A stretch of DNA of 64,000 bases, taken from NCBI GenBank assembly GCA_050249195.1, contig JBFWQY010000003.1, forward strand, positions 64,023 through 128,022, in the 5' to 3' direction. The notes under the pieces are model-generated. The model made no database searches. It saw nothing but the letters and a program-made list of their open reading frames with translations, and was not told the DNA's origin. This document shows, piece by piece, positions 990 through 10,724 of this stretch; the first letter of the stretch is position 1, and the number at the start of each line of letters is the position of its first letter. The translations under genes were made by a program, and so were the position numbers. Source of the DNA: Bdellovibrionales bacterium (GTDB lineage: Bacteria; Bdellovibrionota; Bdellovibrionia; Bdellovibrionales; UBA1609).

Positions 990-3047
990 TTAGGTTTCCT
1001 GATTTTTCTGATTGGCGTAGTGCTCACGAATCCAGGTCCGGGCATATTTTAAAAATGCATCATTAATTCCGAAGTACGTCAGATAAACGAGGTAAGCGCC
1101 CTTCTCAGAGGGGTGCTCCTCGCACGCATACACGCGCGCGGCGAGGCAGTTGTTGGGGGCGTTTTCATAAATCGACTTGCGCAAGTACACCACAGTTCCC
1201 GGCTGCATGGGGTGGAAGACTTTAAGAGTCGCACCATATTCACTGAGGGCCTCGAGGTTCACGCTCTTGGAAATATGGGCCGGCAACCCGGGTTGATTCC
1301 ATCCCAGATTGTCGAATTTAAAAAGAGTGTTCTCGTTGGGGAGATGTTCCGAGAGTAAAAAAAGAAGTTGGCGCATATCGACGGGTTTGCTCAATAATCC
1401 GAGGAGATCAATACAGTTCAGCCAGGCCGGTGAAAATTGACCTCCGTTCTCCGTAACGAACACGAATTTCACGTCCTTTTGCGTTTTCGCCAGCCCTTTG
1501 TGGACGGCGCGTTCGGCGATCCCGCCCATCCAGCCGGCGGGATCTTCCGGGACGAAGCTGGTTTCGATCAGCAGCGTATCGAGCTTCTGGCTTTTTTCCT
1601 CGCTAGTCGCCTTGGCCACGATATCCGTGAGTGGCGCCGGCGAAAGCTCGACGGTGACCATACCGTCCACGCCGCCCTTGAAAATCCTAAAGTTAACCGC
1701 GCGTCGCTGGTTCTGCACATCTTGCATGGTCAGCAGCTTGCGCAACTCGCGCCCCTGATTTACGAGCTGGACGGCTTCTTCCATAATCAGACGTGAGGCT
1801 TTCTCTTGCATCAAGCCCAGCCATTTATCGGGACTGGAGAAGATCGCCAGCGCCGGATGGCCCAGAAAGAGGTCGTCGGAGCTGGGTCCGGGGTCCACGC
1901 TTAAGCAGGAAAGATTCGTGGAGGATATCGTCAGTGAAATTGTTGAACTGTAAAAATCCGACTCATCGGAGGCCTTGGGTGGCGAAGTTTTCGAAGACGT
2001 AACCGTGGCGGCGGCGTCGAGATAACGATGGAAAAACACCTGGAACGAGTTTTCCGTGACCACGCGAATGCGGTCCATCTCCTTCTGCATGGCTTGCGCT
2101 AGGGCGTTCGCCGCGGCTTCGTCGGAATCGATAATGGCGATCCCGAATTGGCGCTTGTCTTCTTCTTTCAATGACCATTTTTCAGGGTTAAAGCGCACGG
2201 CCTCGCGGTCCTCCGTCAGCAAACTCTTGTAGCTTGGCGACTTGGATAAGGCCCTTCGGATTTGACCGAGCCCTTCGCGCGATAGACCAAAATAGGTGAA
2301 GTAGACGAGAAACTGACCGTGGCGGGTGGGGTGAGGTTCCGACCGAAGGACTTTGGCGTACACCTCCAGCCGCTGTCTCTCACCAGGGAGCTGGATGTAG
2401 AGGTGCGCGGCGACACCTCGTTTGAGCGGAACAGGATTGCAAACGGCGATCGCGACGTCGGAGAGGCGCTCGATTTTGGCGATCTTCGAGATTTCAATCT
2501 GCTGTTGAACTTCCTGGGTGAAGAGCCAGCGTGGAGTCGTGCGCTTGGGCAATGCCAATAGAATCTGCACCTTCTGCAGGAAAATAAGGCGGTCAATCGG
2601 GAGATAGATCAGATCATCCAGGAAGGGATGCACCATATCGACCTTGCTTAAACCGTCTTCTTCATACTTGAGCATCACCAAACGCAGTTGACCCTCGGCC
2701 GGGAAATGCTTGAAGCGGCGCATGTTAGCCCGAAGCTTGTCGATCCACGGCCCCGGTTTCCCGGAAATGGTGTCTAGCGCGAAAATCAGCATGTGAATTT
2801 CACTGAAGAGCTTCAGTTCCGTGCCATCATGATTGCCGGAGTCCTCCGCGTTCGCGGCACCCTCAGGGGCGCGTTCTTCAGAACCCGGATTCTCCGCCGG
2901 AGCACGATCACGGAAGTAGAGATCTTGCATCTCTTCTTCGGAACGAAAGGTGGCGAAGCGGAGATCGTCGAACTCAAGCTCTTCCAGAAACTGCTCGACC
3001 TGGCGACGAACACGGTCCTCTTTCACCAAGGCAATCACATTCGGCAC
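990..3047 (-). CDS. Hypothetical cytoplasmic signalling protein built from two tandem receiver-like + PilZ-like modules (tentative c-di-GMP effector)
   Basis: 685-aa ORF with a GTG start at 3047. Both halves end in near-identical motifs: QFLVYFTYFGLSREGL (2268-2315) and AYLVYLTYFGINDAFL (1050-1097). Receiver-like KP-helix motifs are YLPIDRLIFLQKV and SKPVDMRQLLFLL. RTTPR (RxxxR-like) and ALSEYGATL (SxxG-like) resemble degenerate PilZ motifs. The domain assignment is tentative. Confidence 0.7.
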   Translation of the reverse strand: MPNVIALVKEDRVRRQVEQFLEELEFDDLRFATFRSEEEMQDLYFRDRAPAENPGSEERAPEGAANAEDSGNHDGTELKLFSEIHMLIFALDTISGKPGPWIDKLRANMRRFKHFPAEGQLRLVMLKYEEDGLSKVDMVHPFLDDLIYLPIDRLIFLQKVQILLALPKRTTPRWLFTQEVQQQIEISKIAKIERLSDVAIAVCNPVPLKRGVAAHLYIQLPGERQRLEVYAKVLRSEPHPTRHGQFLVYFTYFGLSREGLGQIRRALSKSPSYKSLLTEDREAVRFNPEKWSLKEEDKRQFGIAIIDSDEAAANALAQAMQKEMDRIRVVTENSFQVFFHRYLDAAATVTSSKTSPPKASDESDFYSSTISLTISSTNLSCLSVDPGPSSDDLFLGHPALAIFSSPDKWLGLMQEKASRLIMEEAVQLVNQGRELRKLLTMQDVQNQRRAVNFRIFKGGVDGMVTVELSPAPLTDIVAKATSEEKSQKLDTLLIETSFVPEDPAGWMGGIAERAVHKGLAKTQKDVKFVFVTENGGQFSPAWLNCIDLLGLLSKPVDMRQLLFLLSEHLPNENTLFKFDNLGWNQPGLPAHISKSVNLEALSEYGATLKVFHPMQPGTVVYLRKSIYENAPNNCLAARVYACEEHPSEKGAYLVYLTYFGINDAFLKYARTWIREHYANQKNQET

Positions 3048-3104
3048 AGTTCCAATCCCCCAAGTCTAATTACACGCTACAATTGAGAGGGGATTCAAGA
3101 TGAT

Positions 3105-3749
3105 TCAGGGATAGAGTCGGCGGAAGGTCCAGTTCGGGACACCCGGGCCCGAGGGCATCGGCAGGGTGGAGGGCGAGGCTCCCGAGCGCACGAACTCGAA
3201 TCGATCGTGCAGGCGCCCGGGGCGTCCGATCCAGAATTCCATGCGACGAGGCTTCAGAATGTATCCACCCCAGTGTTCCGGGCAGGGAACTTCGGCACCC
3301 CGAAATCGATTCTCCGCTTCCGCCCAGGCCTCCTCGAGCGCTTGCCGTGAGGCCGCGGTTTCGGACTGTCGCGAAATGCACTGGCTGATCTGACTCTCGC
3401 GCGGGCGAGTTCGCCAGTAATCCACCGAAACCTGGCGCGGAACCTTCTCGACCTGGCCCGAAATAATAACCTGGCGGAATAGGGCCTCCCAATAAAAGAC
3501 GGCCGCCGCACGCGGCGTATGAGCGAGGTGGCGTCCCTTGGTGCTGTTGTAGTTCGTGAAGAATGTGAATCCCTCCACCGACCACTCCTTGCACAAAACC
3601 ACGCGCGCATAGGGCTCACCCTCGGGCGACACCGTGGCCACAGTCATCGCCGTGGCATCCTTGGTGGCCGGGTGAGCGGCGGCCTCTTTGATCCATGAGT
3701 CAAAAATCAGGTGCGGGGGCGTCTGTTCGGTGATTTCTAGTCGTTCCAT
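3105..3749 (-). CDS. pdxH: Pyridoxamine 5'-phosphate oxidase
   Basis: Full-length similarity by eye to PdxH, including ATVSPEGEPYARVVLCK, FFTNYNSTKG, RESQISQ and the C-terminal HDRFEF...RLYP. Start is taken at the MERLE ATG (3749) behind GGAG; the ORF track extends to 3767. Confidence 0.9.
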   Translation of the reverse strand: MERLEITEQTPPHLIFDSWIKEAAAHPATKDATAMTVATVSPEGEPYARVVLCKEWSVEGFTFFTNYNSTKGRHLAHTPRAAAVFYWEALFRQVIISGQVEKVPRQVSVDYWRTRPRESQISQCISRQSETAASRQALEEAWAEAENRFRGAEVPCPEHWGGYILKPRRMEFWIGRPGRLHDRFEFVRSGASPSTLPMPSGPGVPNWTFRRLYP

Positions 3750-5184: not shown

Positions 5185-5230
5185 CGAACTTTAAGGGGTT
5201 AGGCGAGGATTGGCATGCCTTTCAATGGAC

Positions 5231-5257
5231 AAAAGGACGCTCACGGAGCGTCCTTTT
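5231..5257. terminator. Bidirectional rho-independent terminator between convergent genes
   Basis: Perfect 12-bp stem AAAAGGACGCTC / GAGCGTCCTTTT with a 3-nt loop. It is A-rich on one flank and followed by TTTTGATTT on the other. It lies between the stops at 5184 (+) and 5313 (-). Confidence 0.7.
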
Positions 5258-5312
5258 GATTTATTTAGGTCAGGTCATGATGCTTGAGGATGGAACTCTT
5301 CCCAAGCCAGCT

Positions 5313-6029
5313 CTAGGCGGCCCGTCGGTTACTTCCTACGCCACAGTCCTCACCCAGTTTTTGTACGCGGAACTGAAGTTCTGACTCAGGAATAGCGTTA
5401 GGATCATAATTGTTGTCATTGGCGTAGGCCTCTTTGAGGCAAGCGGCCTTGGCATTTACATCTTTAGCGCCCGTACGAACATTACAGGCTACATATTCCA
5501 GCGCATTCTCTCGTGCTTGTGGGCCCCAGCTCACGACGTCCGTGCAATTCACCGCGAACTGTCCTGCGCTCACCATTTGAAGAGCCGACACATAATTGAA
5601 GCGGGTCCCTGCAATCAGAGCTGAAGCTTGATCTTGATTGCTGCAGGTGCCTTTATCTTGTTTAGCAGCGCCGGGCCCTGTGCCGTTATCGTTTGCCGCG
5701 ACCGGCGGCCTATAAACAACAGGAGCCGTTGTCGGGGCTGTGGCGCCTTTGGGAGCAACAGTTTTACCTTCACCCGTAGGAGCAACGGTTTTGCCTTCGC
5801 CTTTAGGAGCCTCCATACCCTTCCCTAGAGTTGAGCCTTGCTCCCAAGCTCTCACGGTCTCACCTGTGGCTCGCGCCGAGGGAGCGGCCTTCATGACCTC
5901 TGGGGCACGCACGTTGCCCAAACCTTGTCGCGGAGCCGTGCGGGCTCGAACGGCTTGTGCGTTTGCGAAATTGGCCGAAGCCATGGCGATCAACGCGACC
6001 GCAGTGACCAAATAAGTTCTGCTAGACAT
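5313..6029 (-). CDS. Secreted Cys-containing protein of unknown function
   Basis: The ATG at 6029 (MSSRTYLVTAVALIAMASANFANAQA, signal peptide) is preceded by GAGGAGG. The ORF track start at 6134 is less likely. Contains a duplicated GEGKTVAP(T/K) segment. Confidence 0.7.
   Translation of the reverse strand: MSSRTYLVTAVALIAMASANFANAQAVRARTAPRQGLGNVRAPEVMKAAPSARATGETVRAWEQGSTLGKGMEAPKGEGKTVAPTGEGKTVAPKGATAPTTAPVVYRPPVAANDNGTGPGAAKQDKGTCSNQDQASALIAGTRFNYVSALQMVSAGQFAVNCTDVVSWGPQARENALEYVACNVRTGAKDVNAKAACLKEAYANDNNYDPNAIPESELQFRVQKLGEDCGVGSNRRAA
5748..5801. repeat. Imperfect 27-nt tandem duplication inside the CDS (GEGKTVAPT / GEGKTVAPK)
   Basis: Two adjacent 27-nt units, 5748-5774 and 5775-5801, differ at a few positions. 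Confidence 0.8.
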
Positions 6030-6331
6030 CTGTAAACTCCTCCTCAAAGCAATCATCGTTACTTTTTCACCCAACCCCTTTGTCGGTTTCTGCGTCTGAT
6101 AGGTCGGCTGCTGTTCAGCCAAAAAGCTGTGCAAAGTTAATGCCCCAAGTTAGGGCTTTCTTTGCTCTTCTTGAATCCCTTCAGTTCTCCCTCGTCTCCA
6201 AATAAAGCCCATTCAGGGACCCGAGAGACAAAAACCGGCACGTCAGAAGACCTTTTCCTATAATCGAGTCGGGCTCAAACTTTCAAACGCCTTTGTAAAA
6301 AAGTTCGCCCGTATCGCGCCATTAGAAAAAA

Positions 6332-9300
6332 TTACTCGCCCTTAACGATGACTGTTCCGCCTTCGAAAGCCGTTAGCACGGTACGGAACTGTACGGCCTG
6401 AATGATCACAGTCCTCATTTGCTGCTGTAGCGTTTCCGCAATCAAAAGAATATGAGAGTTCTCGCCTCCTCCTTTGGCGGGCTTTTCTGCTGCGGGGAGA
6501 GCGGTATCGGGCGGTAAGAGGTCCAAAAGCTTGTTCTCCCAGCTGATTTTTCCGTTTCGAAGCCATCCGCGCCGGAAGCGAATTTCTCCGTGACGTCCTT
6601 CCACCTTGGCGACAACGGGCTGCAAGCCGACGGAATCCTGGGTGCCCGCATAGTATACGGGTTTACCTTCGGGAGAGGCTTGACCTTTAACTTCCGCGCC
6701 TACGGTTGTCGATGACGTTTCAGTTTTCTTCTTATCTGGATCAGCCTCACTTTTATACTGGGAAGTTTTGGCTGCTTGCTCTGGCCACACATGGGGGAGT
6801 TGGTTGAGAATCTTCTCACTAACAGTCGAGATTGCTTTGGAGACGGTAAAAAAAGCAGTCTGGATCTTTGCTAAGTCAGAACGTTTTTCGCTGTTTACAG
6901 TATGAATATGCATCCCGAGCTCCAGTAGAACCCCTTGCAAAAGTACCAATTGCTTTTGCAGTTCATCCAGCTCCGCGATCTTTTTGCCGTGAACCCGGGC
7001 GGCGGATTCTAACATATCCATAAGAAGGGCGCTGTAAAGGCGGAGCTCATCCAGGAGTGAATTGAAGATGCCGTTGGGCATCCGGTGTGTGGCTTCCGCC
7101 TGACAGTCTGAGGCTCGTCCCAGTTCCCGCAAGTGGCGGGCCAGGGAGGGGATCTTCAACTCAGCAGTTGTGGGTTCACAATAGTGATAACTTGCGTTTT
7201 CCAAAGCCGGGACGTAATTGTCCGTCAGCATTTTGGCATATTCCTTACGGAATTGCTCCTGTAGCGCTTCATGCGGGATCATCACATTTTCAAGCCACCA
7301 TTCGTCGAATTTGTTTTGACCTTTATCATCCACCACAGCCGTACGGAGATTTTCGAGGATATATTGTTCCAGTCCACGGGCCAATTGGCCGGACTTCGAA
7401 GCAAAGGGGAACTCATGGGGCTTGTATGGTCCCCCCGTCGTCAAGCCAACGTGATTAAGGAATGACAAGGGTCCGCTTTCAGTGGGTTGGCTGCAGATCA
7501 CCGAGCCACCGGGTATGGGTTCTACGATCCGGGGCGGGTAAAATGAAATGTCCCAAACGCTGTCACTCGACATCTTTTTCGGCGATCTCGCCATGAGATA
7601 GCGGTACACGGAGACAAGCCAGCCCGGCTGACTGTATCGCTCTGCTTCGGGGCCGCAGGCCATCGAGGTGATCATGAAATCATAGAAGTCCGTGATTTCC
7701 ACATTGGGCCATGCCTTTTTATAGTTGTCGCCGTACTCAGCGCCGAGTTCATTGATTCGCGCGCGAAATTCCTCCGGCGTTTCTACCTTCTCTTCCTTTT
7801 CATCTGTGTTGCCGGATTTGCCGCGTTTGGGCTTCTTGTCTGTGCCTAAGAGCTTGTCGATATGATTCTTGTAGAAGGAATAGGAGGCGGCCAACAAACC
7901 GTTGTAGTTGTGAACCTTGAGAGCCCAGGACTTAAAGGACTCGTTGGTGGCTTTCATCAGGAAGTTATTGCGGTATTCAGCATGAATCTCTCCGTAGCGA
8001 CGGATGACGCTATGAACGTCCACCTGGTCGGGCACGTCGCAATTGTACACTTTTTGATAATTGCGCGAGGAGTCCAGACAGACGCGCTCCCATTTGTAGA
8101 GATTTTTCCAATTGTTGGCTTGGAGTCGTTTCCATTCTGTGAGGATCTTCGTCTCTGAATCGTTAATGGAATTCCCGAATTCATTAATGTAGGAGGGTAT
8201 CGCGCGCGCGTCTCCGCCCTTGTACTCGCCGGTGAGACCCGCCCTGTACCAATCATATGTGGCTCGCAGAGGGTACTGGAGATCAGGGTTGTCCGCGTAA
8301 AACTTCTGCGAAACCATTTTCCCAAATGGGAGGAGGGAACTTGAAATAGCGTAGATCCCCATGAATAGCGTTGCCGCGCCAACCATGATCAGGCCGGTGA
8401 CTCCGAGGGGAGGAACCTTGGCGACCCGGATGACCGGTCCAACAACTTGACCGATCCGGGCTGCCACCGTCGGTGTGTGCAGTACGCGATAAATCGGGAA
8501 GAAGACACTGGTTGCGACCAGAATGTCAGGAATCAGGGGAGCAATCTCGTTATCGAGCTGGTAGTTGGCGTACTTGTCGTAAAGGGCGTCGCAGGCGGCG
8601 TAATCTTTGACGAACTTGCCTGTTTTCTTTTGGCTGAACCAGCCGGTACATTTAGAGAAGTTTGGATCATAGAACATCTCCATCATGAGATGGCTGACCA
8701 CGCCGCCGAAAATCATGGCGGCGGCAAAGTGGGGGAGAACAGTCCGCACGGGCCCGGTCGCCATCGCGCCGTGTCCACCCATCCCGATGTAAAAGGGCGC
8801 AGCGGCGGCGAGGAAACCTCCAAAAGATAAATAAAACACGGGGTCGGTCGCGGCATCCGCCCAGGCTTGAAGCGCGCGCGGGTCGTTGGGATACATAAGA
8901 ACCAGACCCAACGCAGTTAAGATTCCAAACGCCAGATAAAAGGAACCTCCCGTCCGCGCGATCGAAGCGGTTCCACCGATCGCTTTGCCTTTCACGGCGT
9001 TGAGTCCACTGCCTTCCATGAAGTTATGCACTGTGGTTCTTAGGCGTTCGCCCTTTACTCGATTCCACTCGAGGGTGCCGCGTAGACTCGACGGCCGGCC
9101 CGCAAGCCATTCCTTCGAGCCGGTCTGATTGGCCGCTTCGGCCGCTTCGAGTGCCGCTCGAGCCTGTTGCGCGCTTTGCGTGAACTCAGGAACGATTTCA
9201 TAGTTACGCGGTCCACTGGGAACATCGCGAGGTGCAGAGCCTTCGGGCACCGTGAGAGCTCGGTTGCTGGGGATTGGTTCTGCCGGGCGGGCTTGAGCCG

Positions 9301-10534
9301 GATAATTTGGATACTCGTTAATTCCGGGCGGGCGGGAATGGTAAGCGTTGTCCCACTGAATGCGCCCGTCGGCTTCCATTAACCCGTGACGGAATCGACC
9401 TTCTGAGCTTGGAACGTCCCTTTCCGCATACACTCGCCGGCGTCCTTCGGGATCCTTGAAGGGTGTGTAAAACACAGCACCTCCGCCAGGTGCTCTTACG
9501 TTCGGGACAGTTTCTCCATAGGTCGGCGCGTGGCGAAACTGTGACTCTTCCCAAGTGATTTTGCCATTGACCATCGTGCCCCACTGTGTGCGCACGACGC
9601 CATTCTCCAAAAATTTAGCTTCGGCATGAACCATCGGCTGGCCTCTGTGATTTTTCCAGCCCGAATAGTAAACAGCGCCACCGTTAGGAGCGTGCTCCAG
9701 GAAGATCTTGTCGCCCGGCTTCCATTTGAATCCGGGAGATTTGTCGGGCCGTACCGGAGGGCGATCCCCGGTTGGACGGACGGACTCGGCTGCCTCCGGC
9801 GCATTTCTTAGGGCAGTCTCCCGAGCTTCTTGTTGTTCCCGAGTGAACTCGGGCAGGTATTCCGTTTGACGAGAGGTGTTTCCGGGATAATCCGGACGGC
9901 CAGGTCCGGGGCCTGGTCCCTGTACAGTTAACGATTTATTGCTGGGAATGTCCCCCGCTCTTTCCACGGCTGGATAATTTGTTCCGGGGTGGACCGTCGG
10001 ACGAGAAATCCTCGGGGCCTCCCAAGCAATCTCTCCGGTCTTGTTGTCAATTGTTCCCCAATAGACTCGGGTTCGCCCATTAGGGAAAATTTCTGTACGG
10101 GATTGGACTCGGTAGCGTTGATATTTGTCTTTTAATCCCGTATGGAAAACTTCAGTCCCGGAGGGACTTTTGGCCCCTGGAATGATGTCGCCCGGGCGCC
10201 ATCTTGGCGTACCTGAACCGCCTTTGCTGGATCCAGAGCCGCCGTTGCCGCCGCCAGAGCCGCCGTCCCCTCCGATTTCACCATCAAAGTTTTTCGTCGG
10301 GGGCAGATTAGGGGGAGATTTACCACCGCCGCCAGCCGCAGTTTGAGTTTGAGGTGGCGCCCGCTCACCCTGAGCCTCTGGCGATTGAGCTCCTTGAGGA
10401 GAGACTTTCTCTCTCGTTGCAACGGGCTCAGACGGCGCCTGGGGAGGTGCCGCATGGGCTCGCACAAGAGGTGCGAAGATCAAAGTCCAAGAGATGACGA
10501 TTCGAATCCAAGGGTCAAGTATACGGTAAAGCAT
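6332..10534 (-). CDS. 1400-aa orphan envelope protein: signal peptide, Gly-rich linker, repeat modules, polytopic membrane core, large C-terminal domain
   Basis: Single uninterrupted ORF. The N-terminus WTLIFAPLVRAHA is signal-like and is followed by a GGSGGGNGGSGSS linker. Four related beta-rich modules are present. Several hydrophobic helices span about aa 531-737 (8324-8944). I recognise no known family. Confidence 0.85.
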   Translation of the reverse strand: MLYRILDPWIRIVISWTLIFAPLVRAHAAPPQAPSEPVATREKVSPQGAQSPEAQGERAPPQTQTAAGGGGKSPPNLPPTKNFDGEIGGDGGSGGGNGGSGSSKGGSGTPRWRPGDIIPGAKSPSGTEVFHTGLKDKYQRYRVQSRTEIFPNGRTRVYWGTIDNKTGEIAWEAPRISRPTVHPGTNYPAVERAGDIPSNKSLTVQGPGPGPGRPDYPGNTSRQTEYLPEFTREQQEARETALRNAPEAAESVRPTGDRPPVRPDKSPGFKWKPGDKIFLEHAPNGGAVYYSGWKNHRGQPMVHAEAKFLENGVVRTQWGTMVNGKITWEESQFRHAPTYGETVPNVRAPGGGAVFYTPFKDPEGRRRVYAERDVPSSEGRFRHGLMEADGRIQWDNAYHSRPPGINEYPNYPAQARPAEPIPSNRALTVPEGSAPRDVPSGPRNYEIVPEFTQSAQQARAALEAAEAANQTGSKEWLAGRPSSLRGTLEWNRVKGERLRTTVHNFMEGSGLNAVKGKAIGGTASIARTGGSFYLAFGILTALGLVLMYPNDPRALQAWADAATDPVFYLSFGGFLAAAAPFYIGMGGHGAMATGPVRTVLPHFAAAMIFGGVVSHLMMEMFYDPNFSKCTGWFSQKKTGKFVKDYAACDALYDKYANYQLDNEIAPLIPDILVATSVFFPIYRVLHTPTVAARIGQVVGPVIRVAKVPPLGVTGLIMVGAATLFMGIYAISSSLLPFGKMVSQKFYADNPDLQYPLRATYDWYRAGLTGEYKGGDARAIPSYINEFGNSINDSETKILTEWKRLQANNWKNLYKWERVCLDSSRNYQKVYNCDVPDQVDVHSVIRRYGEIHAEYRNNFLMKATNESFKSWALKVHNYNGLLAASYSFYKNHIDKLLGTDKKPKRGKSGNTDEKEEKVETPEEFRARINELGAEYGDNYKKAWPNVEITDFYDFMITSMACGPEAERYSQPGWLVSVYRYLMARSPKKMSSDSVWDISFYPPRIVEPIPGGSVICSQPTESGPLSFLNHVGLTTGGPYKPHEFPFASKSGQLARGLEQYILENLRTAVVDDKGQNKFDEWWLENVMIPHEALQEQFRKEYAKMLTDNYVPALENASYHYCEPTTAELKIPSLARHLRELGRASDCQAEATHRMPNGIFNSLLDELRLYSALLMDMLESAARVHGKKIAELDELQKQLVLLQGVLLELGMHIHTVNSEKRSDLAKIQTAFFTVSKAISTVSEKILNQLPHVWPEQAAKTSQYKSEADPDKKKTETSSTTVGAEVKGQASPEGKPVYYAGTQDSVGLQPVVAKVEGRHGEIRFRRGWLRNGKISWENKLLDLLPPDTALPAAEKPAKGGGENSHILLIAETLQQQMRTVIIQAVQFRTVLTAFEGGTVIVKGE

Positions 10535-10724
10535 ATCGACAGGTTCAGCAATATGCGTGCCTTGTCAGGTGCTTGAAATCGCTGAAAATTTCAGATCTGC
10601 CCGGATTGCGAGGGTCAGATCAGTGTCTAAGCGGGTACTAACTATAGAGACTTACATAGAAATTACAGCTACACCCCGCGCCCTCTTTTGTCACAGCACG
10701 TGTTCACGCCGGCGCTTCAAGCAC

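Follow-up and report, generated by a model that had tools for sequence, protein, structure and literature searches.

The longest open reading frame (ORF) of a 64,000-nucleotide stretch of a Bdellovibrionales genome (contig JBFWQY010000003.1; here called the window) and a small gene that follows it on the same minus strand make up an uncharacterized two-gene unit of the predatory order Bdellovibrionales, in which the position of the partner is conserved. The big gene (6332..10534) is intact, starts with ATG, and encodes a protein of 1400 amino acids (aa); the partner gene (5313..6029) encodes one of 238 aa. The pair is best read as a non-enzymatic, exported, membrane-associated prey-attack module. 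More specifically, we tentatively favor a predator-anchored periplasmic scaffold that would act with its partner at attack or entry. At the sensitivity reached, no characterized family, fold, or system resembles the two-gene module, and its named relatives are all entered as "uncharacterized protein."

A gene pair of the order Bdellovibrionales

A first-pass annotation of the window had called the big protein an orphan, and the same would wrongly follow from a word-indexed homologue search, which returned a single relative, P0002 (45% identity). An exhaustive phmmer (HMMER) search against 1.84 billion representatives corrected this view: it retrieved 85 related clusters, 35 of them at E<1e-30, with most of the full-length members being 800 to 1470 aa long. 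The phylum was surveyed with a 28-sequence family profile run against 401 genomes. The profile matched 86 of the 102 sampled Bdellovibrionales genomes versus 6 of the 299 genomes from the rest of the phylum; broken down further, the matches fell in 17/28 genomes of the window's own taxonomic family, 69/74 of the rest of the order, and 6/299 of the other classes. A search of genome contigs with the window protein alone gave no match. The family is Bdellovibrionales-wide, with Bd0173 as its member in Bdellovibrio bacteriovorus HD100. Nearly all of the 85 representatives carry a signal peptide at the N terminus, and a helix block with a contiguous C-terminal domain is present in all the family members of the phmmer set.

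Three syntenic homologues from metagenome assemblies, P0002 (1145 aa), P0005 (1316 aa), and P0008 (1474 aa), are 31 to 45% identical to the window protein, and their loci share with the window the order patatin, ppk1, ppx, ETF-QO, HIT, big gene, small secreted gene, and ROK. They have two or three N-terminal repeat modules (see below) and, unlike the window protein, no C-terminal one. Distant homologues from other classes of the phylum (L031-L037) are 608 to 856 aa long and conserve a CX8C pair in the loop between the first two helices of the block; no cysteine-tailed partner was found downstream of these out-of-order genes.

The partner was defined by clustering the ORFs around 32 family members. 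A same-strand ORF of 177 to 343 aa follows the big gene in 29 of the 32 loci. The partners are fast evolving and too divergent for BLAST clustering, but they have three features in common. A Cys stands among the last 12 residues in 26 of the 29, compared with 12.6% of the other 429 ORFs of the same loci (binomial p~1e-20), and a signal-peptide-like N terminus is likewise present in 26/29. The number of Cys residues in the mature protein is odd in 27/29 partners, and in 19 the C-terminal Cys is the sole one. The first-pass annotation had missed the partner gene of the window. Its product starts with a signal peptide, continues with about 125 disordered residues, and ends in a helical domain; of its five Cys residues, the last, Cys229, lies 10 residues from the C terminus. 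When compared with 5.8 billion clusters, this protein matched itself only. Its AlphaFold 2 (AF2) model is poor (predicted local distance difference test [pLDDT] score of 52) and the helical domain is weakly confident; the last helix of the model ends beside Cys229, and a Foldseek search with the model gave meaningless matches only.

A hairpin with a 13-bp stem and T runs on each strand (5230..5258, both strands) lies between the convergent partner and ROK genes and is likely a shared bidirectional terminator. No comparable terminator was found between the big gene and the partner. Upstream of the big gene (10534-10600), there is no Shine-Dalgarno-like sequence ahead of the ATG, and GTCGATATG overlaps the start codon. 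The 190-nt gap between the HIT gene and the big gene holds no convincing sigma-28 or sigma-70 promoter.

The first description of the big gene as an uninterrupted frame of 1400 aa and the longest of the window held (the runner-up has 1059 aa), and all the parts then listed (signal, linkers, repeats, hydrophobic helices, Cys region, C-terminal repeat, and tail) were recovered. The protein is exported, as had also been proposed, by a signal peptide at aa 1-28 (10451..10534; predicted cleavage at AHA/A; this and all following features of the gene are on the minus strand). A Pro/Gln-rich and Gly/Ser linker follows at aa 29-111 (10202..10450) and contains the GGSGGGNGGSGSS linker and the GGGGKSPPNLPPT motif, the latter found throughout the long family members. 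Soon after the signal peptide stands the motif (Q)T..GGGG..PP..PP(V/T).(Y/F)..G (10290-10340, aa 66-82). It is conserved in the long multi-module members of the family (P0005, P0011, P0014, P0015, P0019, P0022, and P0029) and could be a recognition or modification site.

The repeat is a beta module of about 55 to 65 aa, present in three N-terminal copies and one near the C terminus. The N-terminal copies occupy aa 112-178 (10001..10201), aa 274-336 (9527..9715; beta strands in the AF2 model), and aa 340-402 (9329..9517; pLDDT about 88). The fourth, at aa 1279-1338 (6521..6700), is preceded by a Lys/Thr-rich linker and inserted ahead of the last helix. Drawn more narrowly, the four copies span aa 115-172, 274-329, 340-396, and 1279-1334. 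In pairwise local alignments assessed against 300 shuffles, the module copies gave z = 8-18, and the observed score was reached by 0/300 shuffles; copy 4 was in addition matched by the N-terminal module columns of the family profile at E = 1.6e-7. A linker of about 75 aa is duplicated as well: its first copy (NYP..IPSNKSLTV..YLPEFT..; aa 183-262, 9749..9988) scored z = 12.8 against the second (aa 405-480, 9095..9322), which is the equivalent of the lone linker in the short (~950-aa) family members. Since the gene contains no DNA repeat longer than 21 nt, the module repeats are ancient and not an assembly artefact. One to three N-terminal modules were found in 34 of the 85 representatives and the copy behind the core in the window protein only. 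With its four modules, duplicated linker, and C-terminal module, the window protein is the most elaborate version of the family seen. The C-terminal copy is a lineage-specific insertion and not a design principle of the family.

Cysteine pairs, helix block, and sidedness of the domains

Between the N-terminal domain and the C-terminal module lie the two parts that are common to the family. The first is a block of five marginally hydrophobic helices, H1 to H5 (aa 521-741, 8312..8974), with conserved F532, G537, P552, F574, G610, P666, and F724 and a helical H3-H4 loop (aa 622-663, 8546..8671) that bears the invariant C629/C648. The second is an alpha/beta domain (C-domain; aa 742-1262, 6749..8311) with the Cys pairs 819/832, 960/1014, and 1119/1144 and the family signature motif S-M-A-C-G-P-E-A-E (aa 957-965, 7640..7666), in which C960 and G961 are invariant. 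A tail with a conserved final helix closes the protein (aa 1339-1400, 6335..6520). An AF2 model of aa 201-1400, based on an alignment of 65 family sequences, had a predicted template modeling score of 0.67, and its C-domain was confident (pLDDT mostly 85 to 96).

We then determined the distribution of Cys residues in the same 65 sequences, to which the following counts also refer. The residues fall into eight columns forming four local pairs; in the window protein, all four are present and every Cys belongs to one of them. Both members of the pairs 629/648 and 960/1014 are present in all 65 sequences, with none lacking both and none having one alone. The pair 819/832 is complete in 42 sequences, absent from 23, and never represented by one residue alone; for 1119/1144, the respective numbers are 55, 8, and 2. 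The spacings are 18, 12, 53, and 24 residues, none is of the CxxC type, the pairs are lost independently, the total Cys count is even in 94% of the sequences, and the N-domain has 0 Cys. Because the residues are gained and lost pairwise, the four pairs would be disulfides and not a metal site, and we read the covariation across the family as a disulfide signature. It would also place the H3-H4 loop and the C-domain in an oxidizing compartment, on the same side as the exported N-domain.

Two further features point in the same direction. The net charge of the loops is -1.7 for H1-H2, +1.3 for H2-H3, and +3.5 for H4-H5, a pattern which suggests that the basic H2-H3 and H4-H5 loops are cytoplasmic and the C-domain is outside. 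Moreover, a module otherwise confined to the exported N-domain also sits at the C-terminal end of the window protein, so the C terminus is probably exported too. The first-pass annotation had pictured an envelope-spanning protein with repeats on both sides of a membrane core; the covarying Cys pairs, which place the C-domain on the N-domain side, contradict it.

The "polytopic core" of that annotation stood in part. The hydrophobic helices it had located at 8324-8944 agree with the five found inside aa 521-741, but they are only marginally hydrophobic. By a crude biological-scale sum for the window protein, H1 and H5 have insertion free energies (dG) of 0.8 and 0.2 kcal/mol, respectively, and H2 to H4 of 3.8 to 7.7, so that only H1 and H5 are near spontaneous insertion (dG~0). 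Depending on the helix, 9 to 58% of the family members pass the Kyte-Doolittle (KD) threshold of 1.6. Among the out-of-order homologues, any 19-aa window above KD 1.6 was found in one of seven, and past the signal peptide these proteins have almost no segment of transmembrane grade; the helix block may have begun as a soluble exported bundle. Judging from these sequence patterns, we conclude that the N-terminal arm, the H3-H4 loop, and the C-domain are probably all exported and that the helix block either makes an even number of membrane passes or is a conditionally inserting bundle.

The conserved positions agree with the first impression that the protein does not look like an enzyme. Those invariant or at least 90% conserved, all of them present in the window protein, are P552, F574, P666, R855, W870, C960-G961, F998-x-P-P, and W1079-W1080. 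The conserved columns thus consist of Cys, Pro, Gly, and aromatic residues plus R855, the sole invariant polar residue; columns of His, Asp, Asn, Ser, or Lys all stay below 90% conservation, and no catalytic constellation is seen. A pattern of this kind is structural rather than catalytic.

The HD100 pair and the proposed role

The first-pass annotation had suggested looking at expression across attack and growth phases, and this led to the one set of functional data in print: both proteins of the HD100 pair peak at prey entry. A 921-aa family member of the B. bacteriovorus genome L056 shares a 90%-identity cluster with HD100 CAE77841.1, and hhalign of the family profile against CAE77841.1 gave a probability of 99.9% (E=9e-35, 629 columns). 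In the HD100 tables, consecutive accessions correspond to Bd0172 (Q6MRB8; uncharacterized, no eggNOG hit), Bd0173 (Q6MRB7; uncharacterized, 921 aa), and Bd0175 (Q6MRB6; thioredoxin) (PMC12546842, PMC11003981). Since length (921 aa) and cluster membership agree, the HD100 family member is Bd0173.

Bd0173 shares with the window protein the signal peptide, the helix block, the Cys pair of the H3-H4 loop, the ICGPD/SMACGPE motif, FxPP, WW, and the C-terminal helices, and, as in the window pair, the Bd0173-type gene is followed by one for a small signal-peptide protein, here ending in ...KKLKECV. It differs from the window protein in its short N-domain without detectable beta modules, in lacking the C-terminal module, and in having no Cys pairs besides the two invariant ones, and the neighbors of Bd0173-type genes are thioredoxin and GlnE genes versus ETF-QO, HIT, and ROK in the window.

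In the quantitative predation proteome of HD100, both Bd0172 and Bd0173 belong to the "EntryPeak" cluster (PMC12546842 supplement). The log10 level of Bd0172 rises from 6.07 in the attack phase to 7.8-8.1 at 15 to 60 min (~100-fold) and then falls to 4.6; that of Bd0173 goes from 5.15 to about 6.15 at 15 to 60 min (~10-fold) and then to 3.65 (PMC12546842). The authors point to Bd0173 as an entry protein with a signal peptide that, together with one other, recurs in the "empty bdelloplast" proteome of Tyson et al. (PMC12546842), and it is on the 30-min "predatosome" list of genes that are up at 30 min of predation and not in host-independent growth (PMC11003981 Supplementary Table 6).

The predator-anchored scaffold is favored because the protein has a Sec signal, a topogenic charge pattern, and insertable helices H1 and H5. 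After cleavage of the signal peptide, the N-terminal arm (the flexible Pro/Gly linker and the beta modules), the H3-H4 loop, and the disulfide-stapled C-domain would all be periplasmic, while the helix block would anchor the protein in the inner membrane of the predator by an even number of passes. Four passes (H2 to H5) would be the most likely arrangement, with the K/R-rich H2-H3 and H4-H5 loops in the cytoplasm and H1 interfacial. The periplasmic domains could then provide the co-expressed partner with a scaffold or receptor, and the unpaired Cys at the C-terminal end of that partner may be used for a covalent link such as an intermolecular disulfide. If the analogy with Bd0173/Bd0172 holds, the module would be switched on at prey attack and entry and work at the predator-prey interface.

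Several points weigh against this scaffold reading. Helices H2 to H4 are too weakly hydrophobic for unaided insertion, H1, which the four-pass model leaves outside the membrane, is among the two most hydrophobic helices, and the out-of-order homologues are, as described above, almost devoid of transmembrane-grade segments. Disulfide geometry and domain sidedness are read from sequence patterns. Bd0173 is about 20% identical to the window protein and lies in another genomic neighborhood, so expression can be transferred from it to the window pair only by inference, and Bd0172 is presumed to be the partner of Bd0173 from gene order alone. In uninvaded dead prey (empty bdelloplasts), Bd0173 was detected with 2 peptides (PMC11003981), which fits delivery into prey better than anchoring in the predator. 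Finally, Bd0172 exceeds Bd0173 by about 2 log10 units (~80-fold, provided that the two scales can be compared), more than a simple 1:1 complex would lead one to expect; with such an excess, the big protein could still serve to anchor or nucleate its partner or as a platform for the processing of it.

The alternative that survives best, which we regard as possible and yet less probable than the anchored scaffold, is a prey-directed protein. It would cross the predator envelope in a soluble, disulfide-stabilized form, and at attack or entry its helix bundle would insert into the prey membrane as a pore, an anchor, or a translocon-like structure, with the abundant partner co-secreted as a cofactor or coat. 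Bd0173 combines a signal peptide, an entry peak, and presence in empty bdelloplasts 300 min after attack, and both papers pick it out as a candidate secreted entry protein (PMC12546842, PMC11003981). The share of family members above the usual transmembrane threshold (9 to 58%, depending on the helix), the resemblance of the out-of-order homologues to soluble exported proteins, and a disulfide-rich domain suited to extracellular life all accord with this alternative, and so does the occurrence of the gene pair in an epibiotic-type genome of 2.66 Mb (G063, locus L048), which fits prey attack over periplasmic residence. However, in the window protein transfer through SecYEG should be arrested by H1 and H5, and the positive-inside charges of the short loops, consistent over the 65 sequences, resemble a co-translational topogenic signal. 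The empty-bdelloplast sample gave just the 2 peptides mentioned and held contaminating attack-phase proteins (PMC11003981), and Foldseek (PDB and BFVD) detected no structural similarity to any pore-former or translocator.

A more elaborate prey-attack device is rather unlikely: here the excess partner would be covalently captured or polymerized through its lone C-terminal Cys, at C629/C648 or at a component of the prey envelope, and the helix bundle would insert into the prey membrane as a seal, pore, or anchor for attachment, killing, or entry.

Improbable is an inner-membrane protein with five transmembrane helices, a periplasmic N-domain, and a cytoplasmic C-domain, whose Cys residues would bind Zn or Fe-S in transmembrane signaling or transport. 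The signal peptide and five predicted helices do count to an N-out/C-in arrangement, and with the H3-H4 loop and the C-domain both in the cytoplasm the four invariant Cys could make one site. Against it stand the gain and loss of Cys as local pairs rather than as a four-ligand set, the lack of CxxC spacing, the even counts, a loop charge bias opposite to that needed, the exported-type beta module at the C terminus, and the absence of any match to a cytoplasmic-domain family, all of which make the N-out/C-in topology look unlikely.

We are just as doubtful about an enzyme with a Cys nucleophile in S-M-A-C-G-P-E, such as a transpeptidase, acyltransferase, or peptidase with the envelope or the C terminus of the partner as its target. 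C960-G961 is indeed invariant within the most conserved motif of the family, the conserved C-terminal feature of the partner could be a substrate, and in HD100 the level of the partner far exceeds that of the big protein, as expected for a substrate. On the other hand, C960 stands without any invariant His, Asp, Glu, Ser, or Lys and has an invariant local counterpart in C1014, as fits a disulfide, and no enzyme family or fold was matched.

An assembly chimera or mis-joined ORF, to which the drop in GC content (about 0.58 to 0.49-0.52) in the 3' third of the gene and the confinement of the C-terminal module copy to the window sequence might point, has a negligible probability, given the colinear homologues of 1145 to 1474 aa with the same architecture and synteny in independent ENA, JGI, and Logan assemblies, the 45% identity of P0002 across 84% of residues 500-1400, the identical 1400-aa protein on two contigs, and the lack of internal DNA repeats able to cause a mis-join.

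Neighboring genes and relation to known systems

In L056, the big gene has the partner on one flank and a gene for a cytoplasmic-type thioredoxin (WCAPC, 116 aa; Bd0175 in HD100) on the other; this thioredoxin gene divergently adjoins the big gene there (L056:7961-8311, minus strand) and in three other Bdellovibrio loci. Eight other Bdellovibrionaceae loci have motA/motB immediately downstream, on the other strand. Both adjacencies are probably synteny only. Bd0149 was followed for the motAB synteny and dropped, as the HD100 member is Bd0173 and nothing showed Bd0149 to belong to the family. Bd0149, an uncharacterized protein of the attack phase, has a FliA promoter, and biofilm-forming host-independent strains carry a G256V change in it; Bd0148 is TadG-like. 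A 741-aa TadE/G-like protein is encoded ahead of the big gene in Bdellovibrio sp. HCB2-146 (L029:11009-13234).

In five loci of the window's taxonomic family (L026:5623-9764, L011:10815-15115, L038:3342-7555, L030:9515-13829, and L053:9694-12114), the big gene is directly preceded, on its own strand, by a gene for a ClpB-like double-AAA+ ATPase (806 to 896 aa), and in 4/5 of them a protein of 564 to 590 aa without a Pfam match is encoded between the two. The ClpB-like and 569-aa genes were rejected as core parts of the module, the 569-aa protein being absent from the window's 97%-complete genome. Within the window, the products of 990-3047 (685 aa) and 3070-3594 (174 aa), both on the minus strand, have no Pfam match at E<=1e-5; the 685-aa gene is syntenic across all the related loci (665 to 677 aa in relatives). 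The GC content of 6001-8000, from the intergenic region into the 3' third of the big gene, is 0.49-0.52 versus 0.57-0.60 in the flanking genes, a dip that may reflect the Lys/Asn/Glu-rich C-domain.

The first-pass annotation had recognized no characterized family in the big protein, and all our searches agree. Pfam, NCBIfam, and PDB-sequence searches gave no match for the whole protein (Pfam cut-off, E<=1), seven homologues (E<=0.1), or the family profile. Foldseek of the 1200-residue AF2 model returned nothing at E<=0.001 in PDB or BFVD (best E, 1.1 and 0.16, respectively), and the top matches, e.g., bacteriorhodopsin and OspA at E>1, are only noise.

To our knowledge, the breaching and killing of prey by Bdellovibrio-like predators are still largely without assigned genes. 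A two-gene module that is near-universal in the predatory order, near-absent outside it, and without a recognizable fold or family is of interest in this respect, the more so as the HD100 copy belongs to the proteins with a maximum at prey entry and, with few others, was also recovered from prey killed without invasion. Its main value for prey-entry biology is that of a defined, testable pair, bd0172-bd0173, in a genetically tractable laboratory strain. Specialists are offered as handles the SMACGPE motif with the four disulfide pairs, a revised topology hypothesis, and a partner with a lone C-terminal Cys. The module would be of modest interest as a structural housekeeping component of the predator envelope, whereas an action on prey membranes would make it an antibacterial effector of a new kind.

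As for known systems, the 55- to 65-aa module may resemble MORN or YwqK-type beta-hairpin repeats, a likeness to which the Pfam search gave no support. The window module has Y-x-G-x-W-x-N-x-x-G-like hairpin motifs and an all-beta prediction; it differs from MORN and MORN_2 in its unit of about 60 aa versus 23 aa and in having no PF02493 or PF07661 match at E<=1. By functional analogy only, the big protein may also be compared with colicin pore domains and the translocators of type III secretion systems. It shows no sequence or fold similarity to them (Foldseek best E > 0.1 in PDB and BFVD) and, unlike them, has a Sec signal peptide and a positive-inside loop pattern. What it shares with these toxins and translocators is the design of a large exported protein with marginally hydrophobic helices between soluble domains, and its HD100 homologue is produced during the attack on a target cell.

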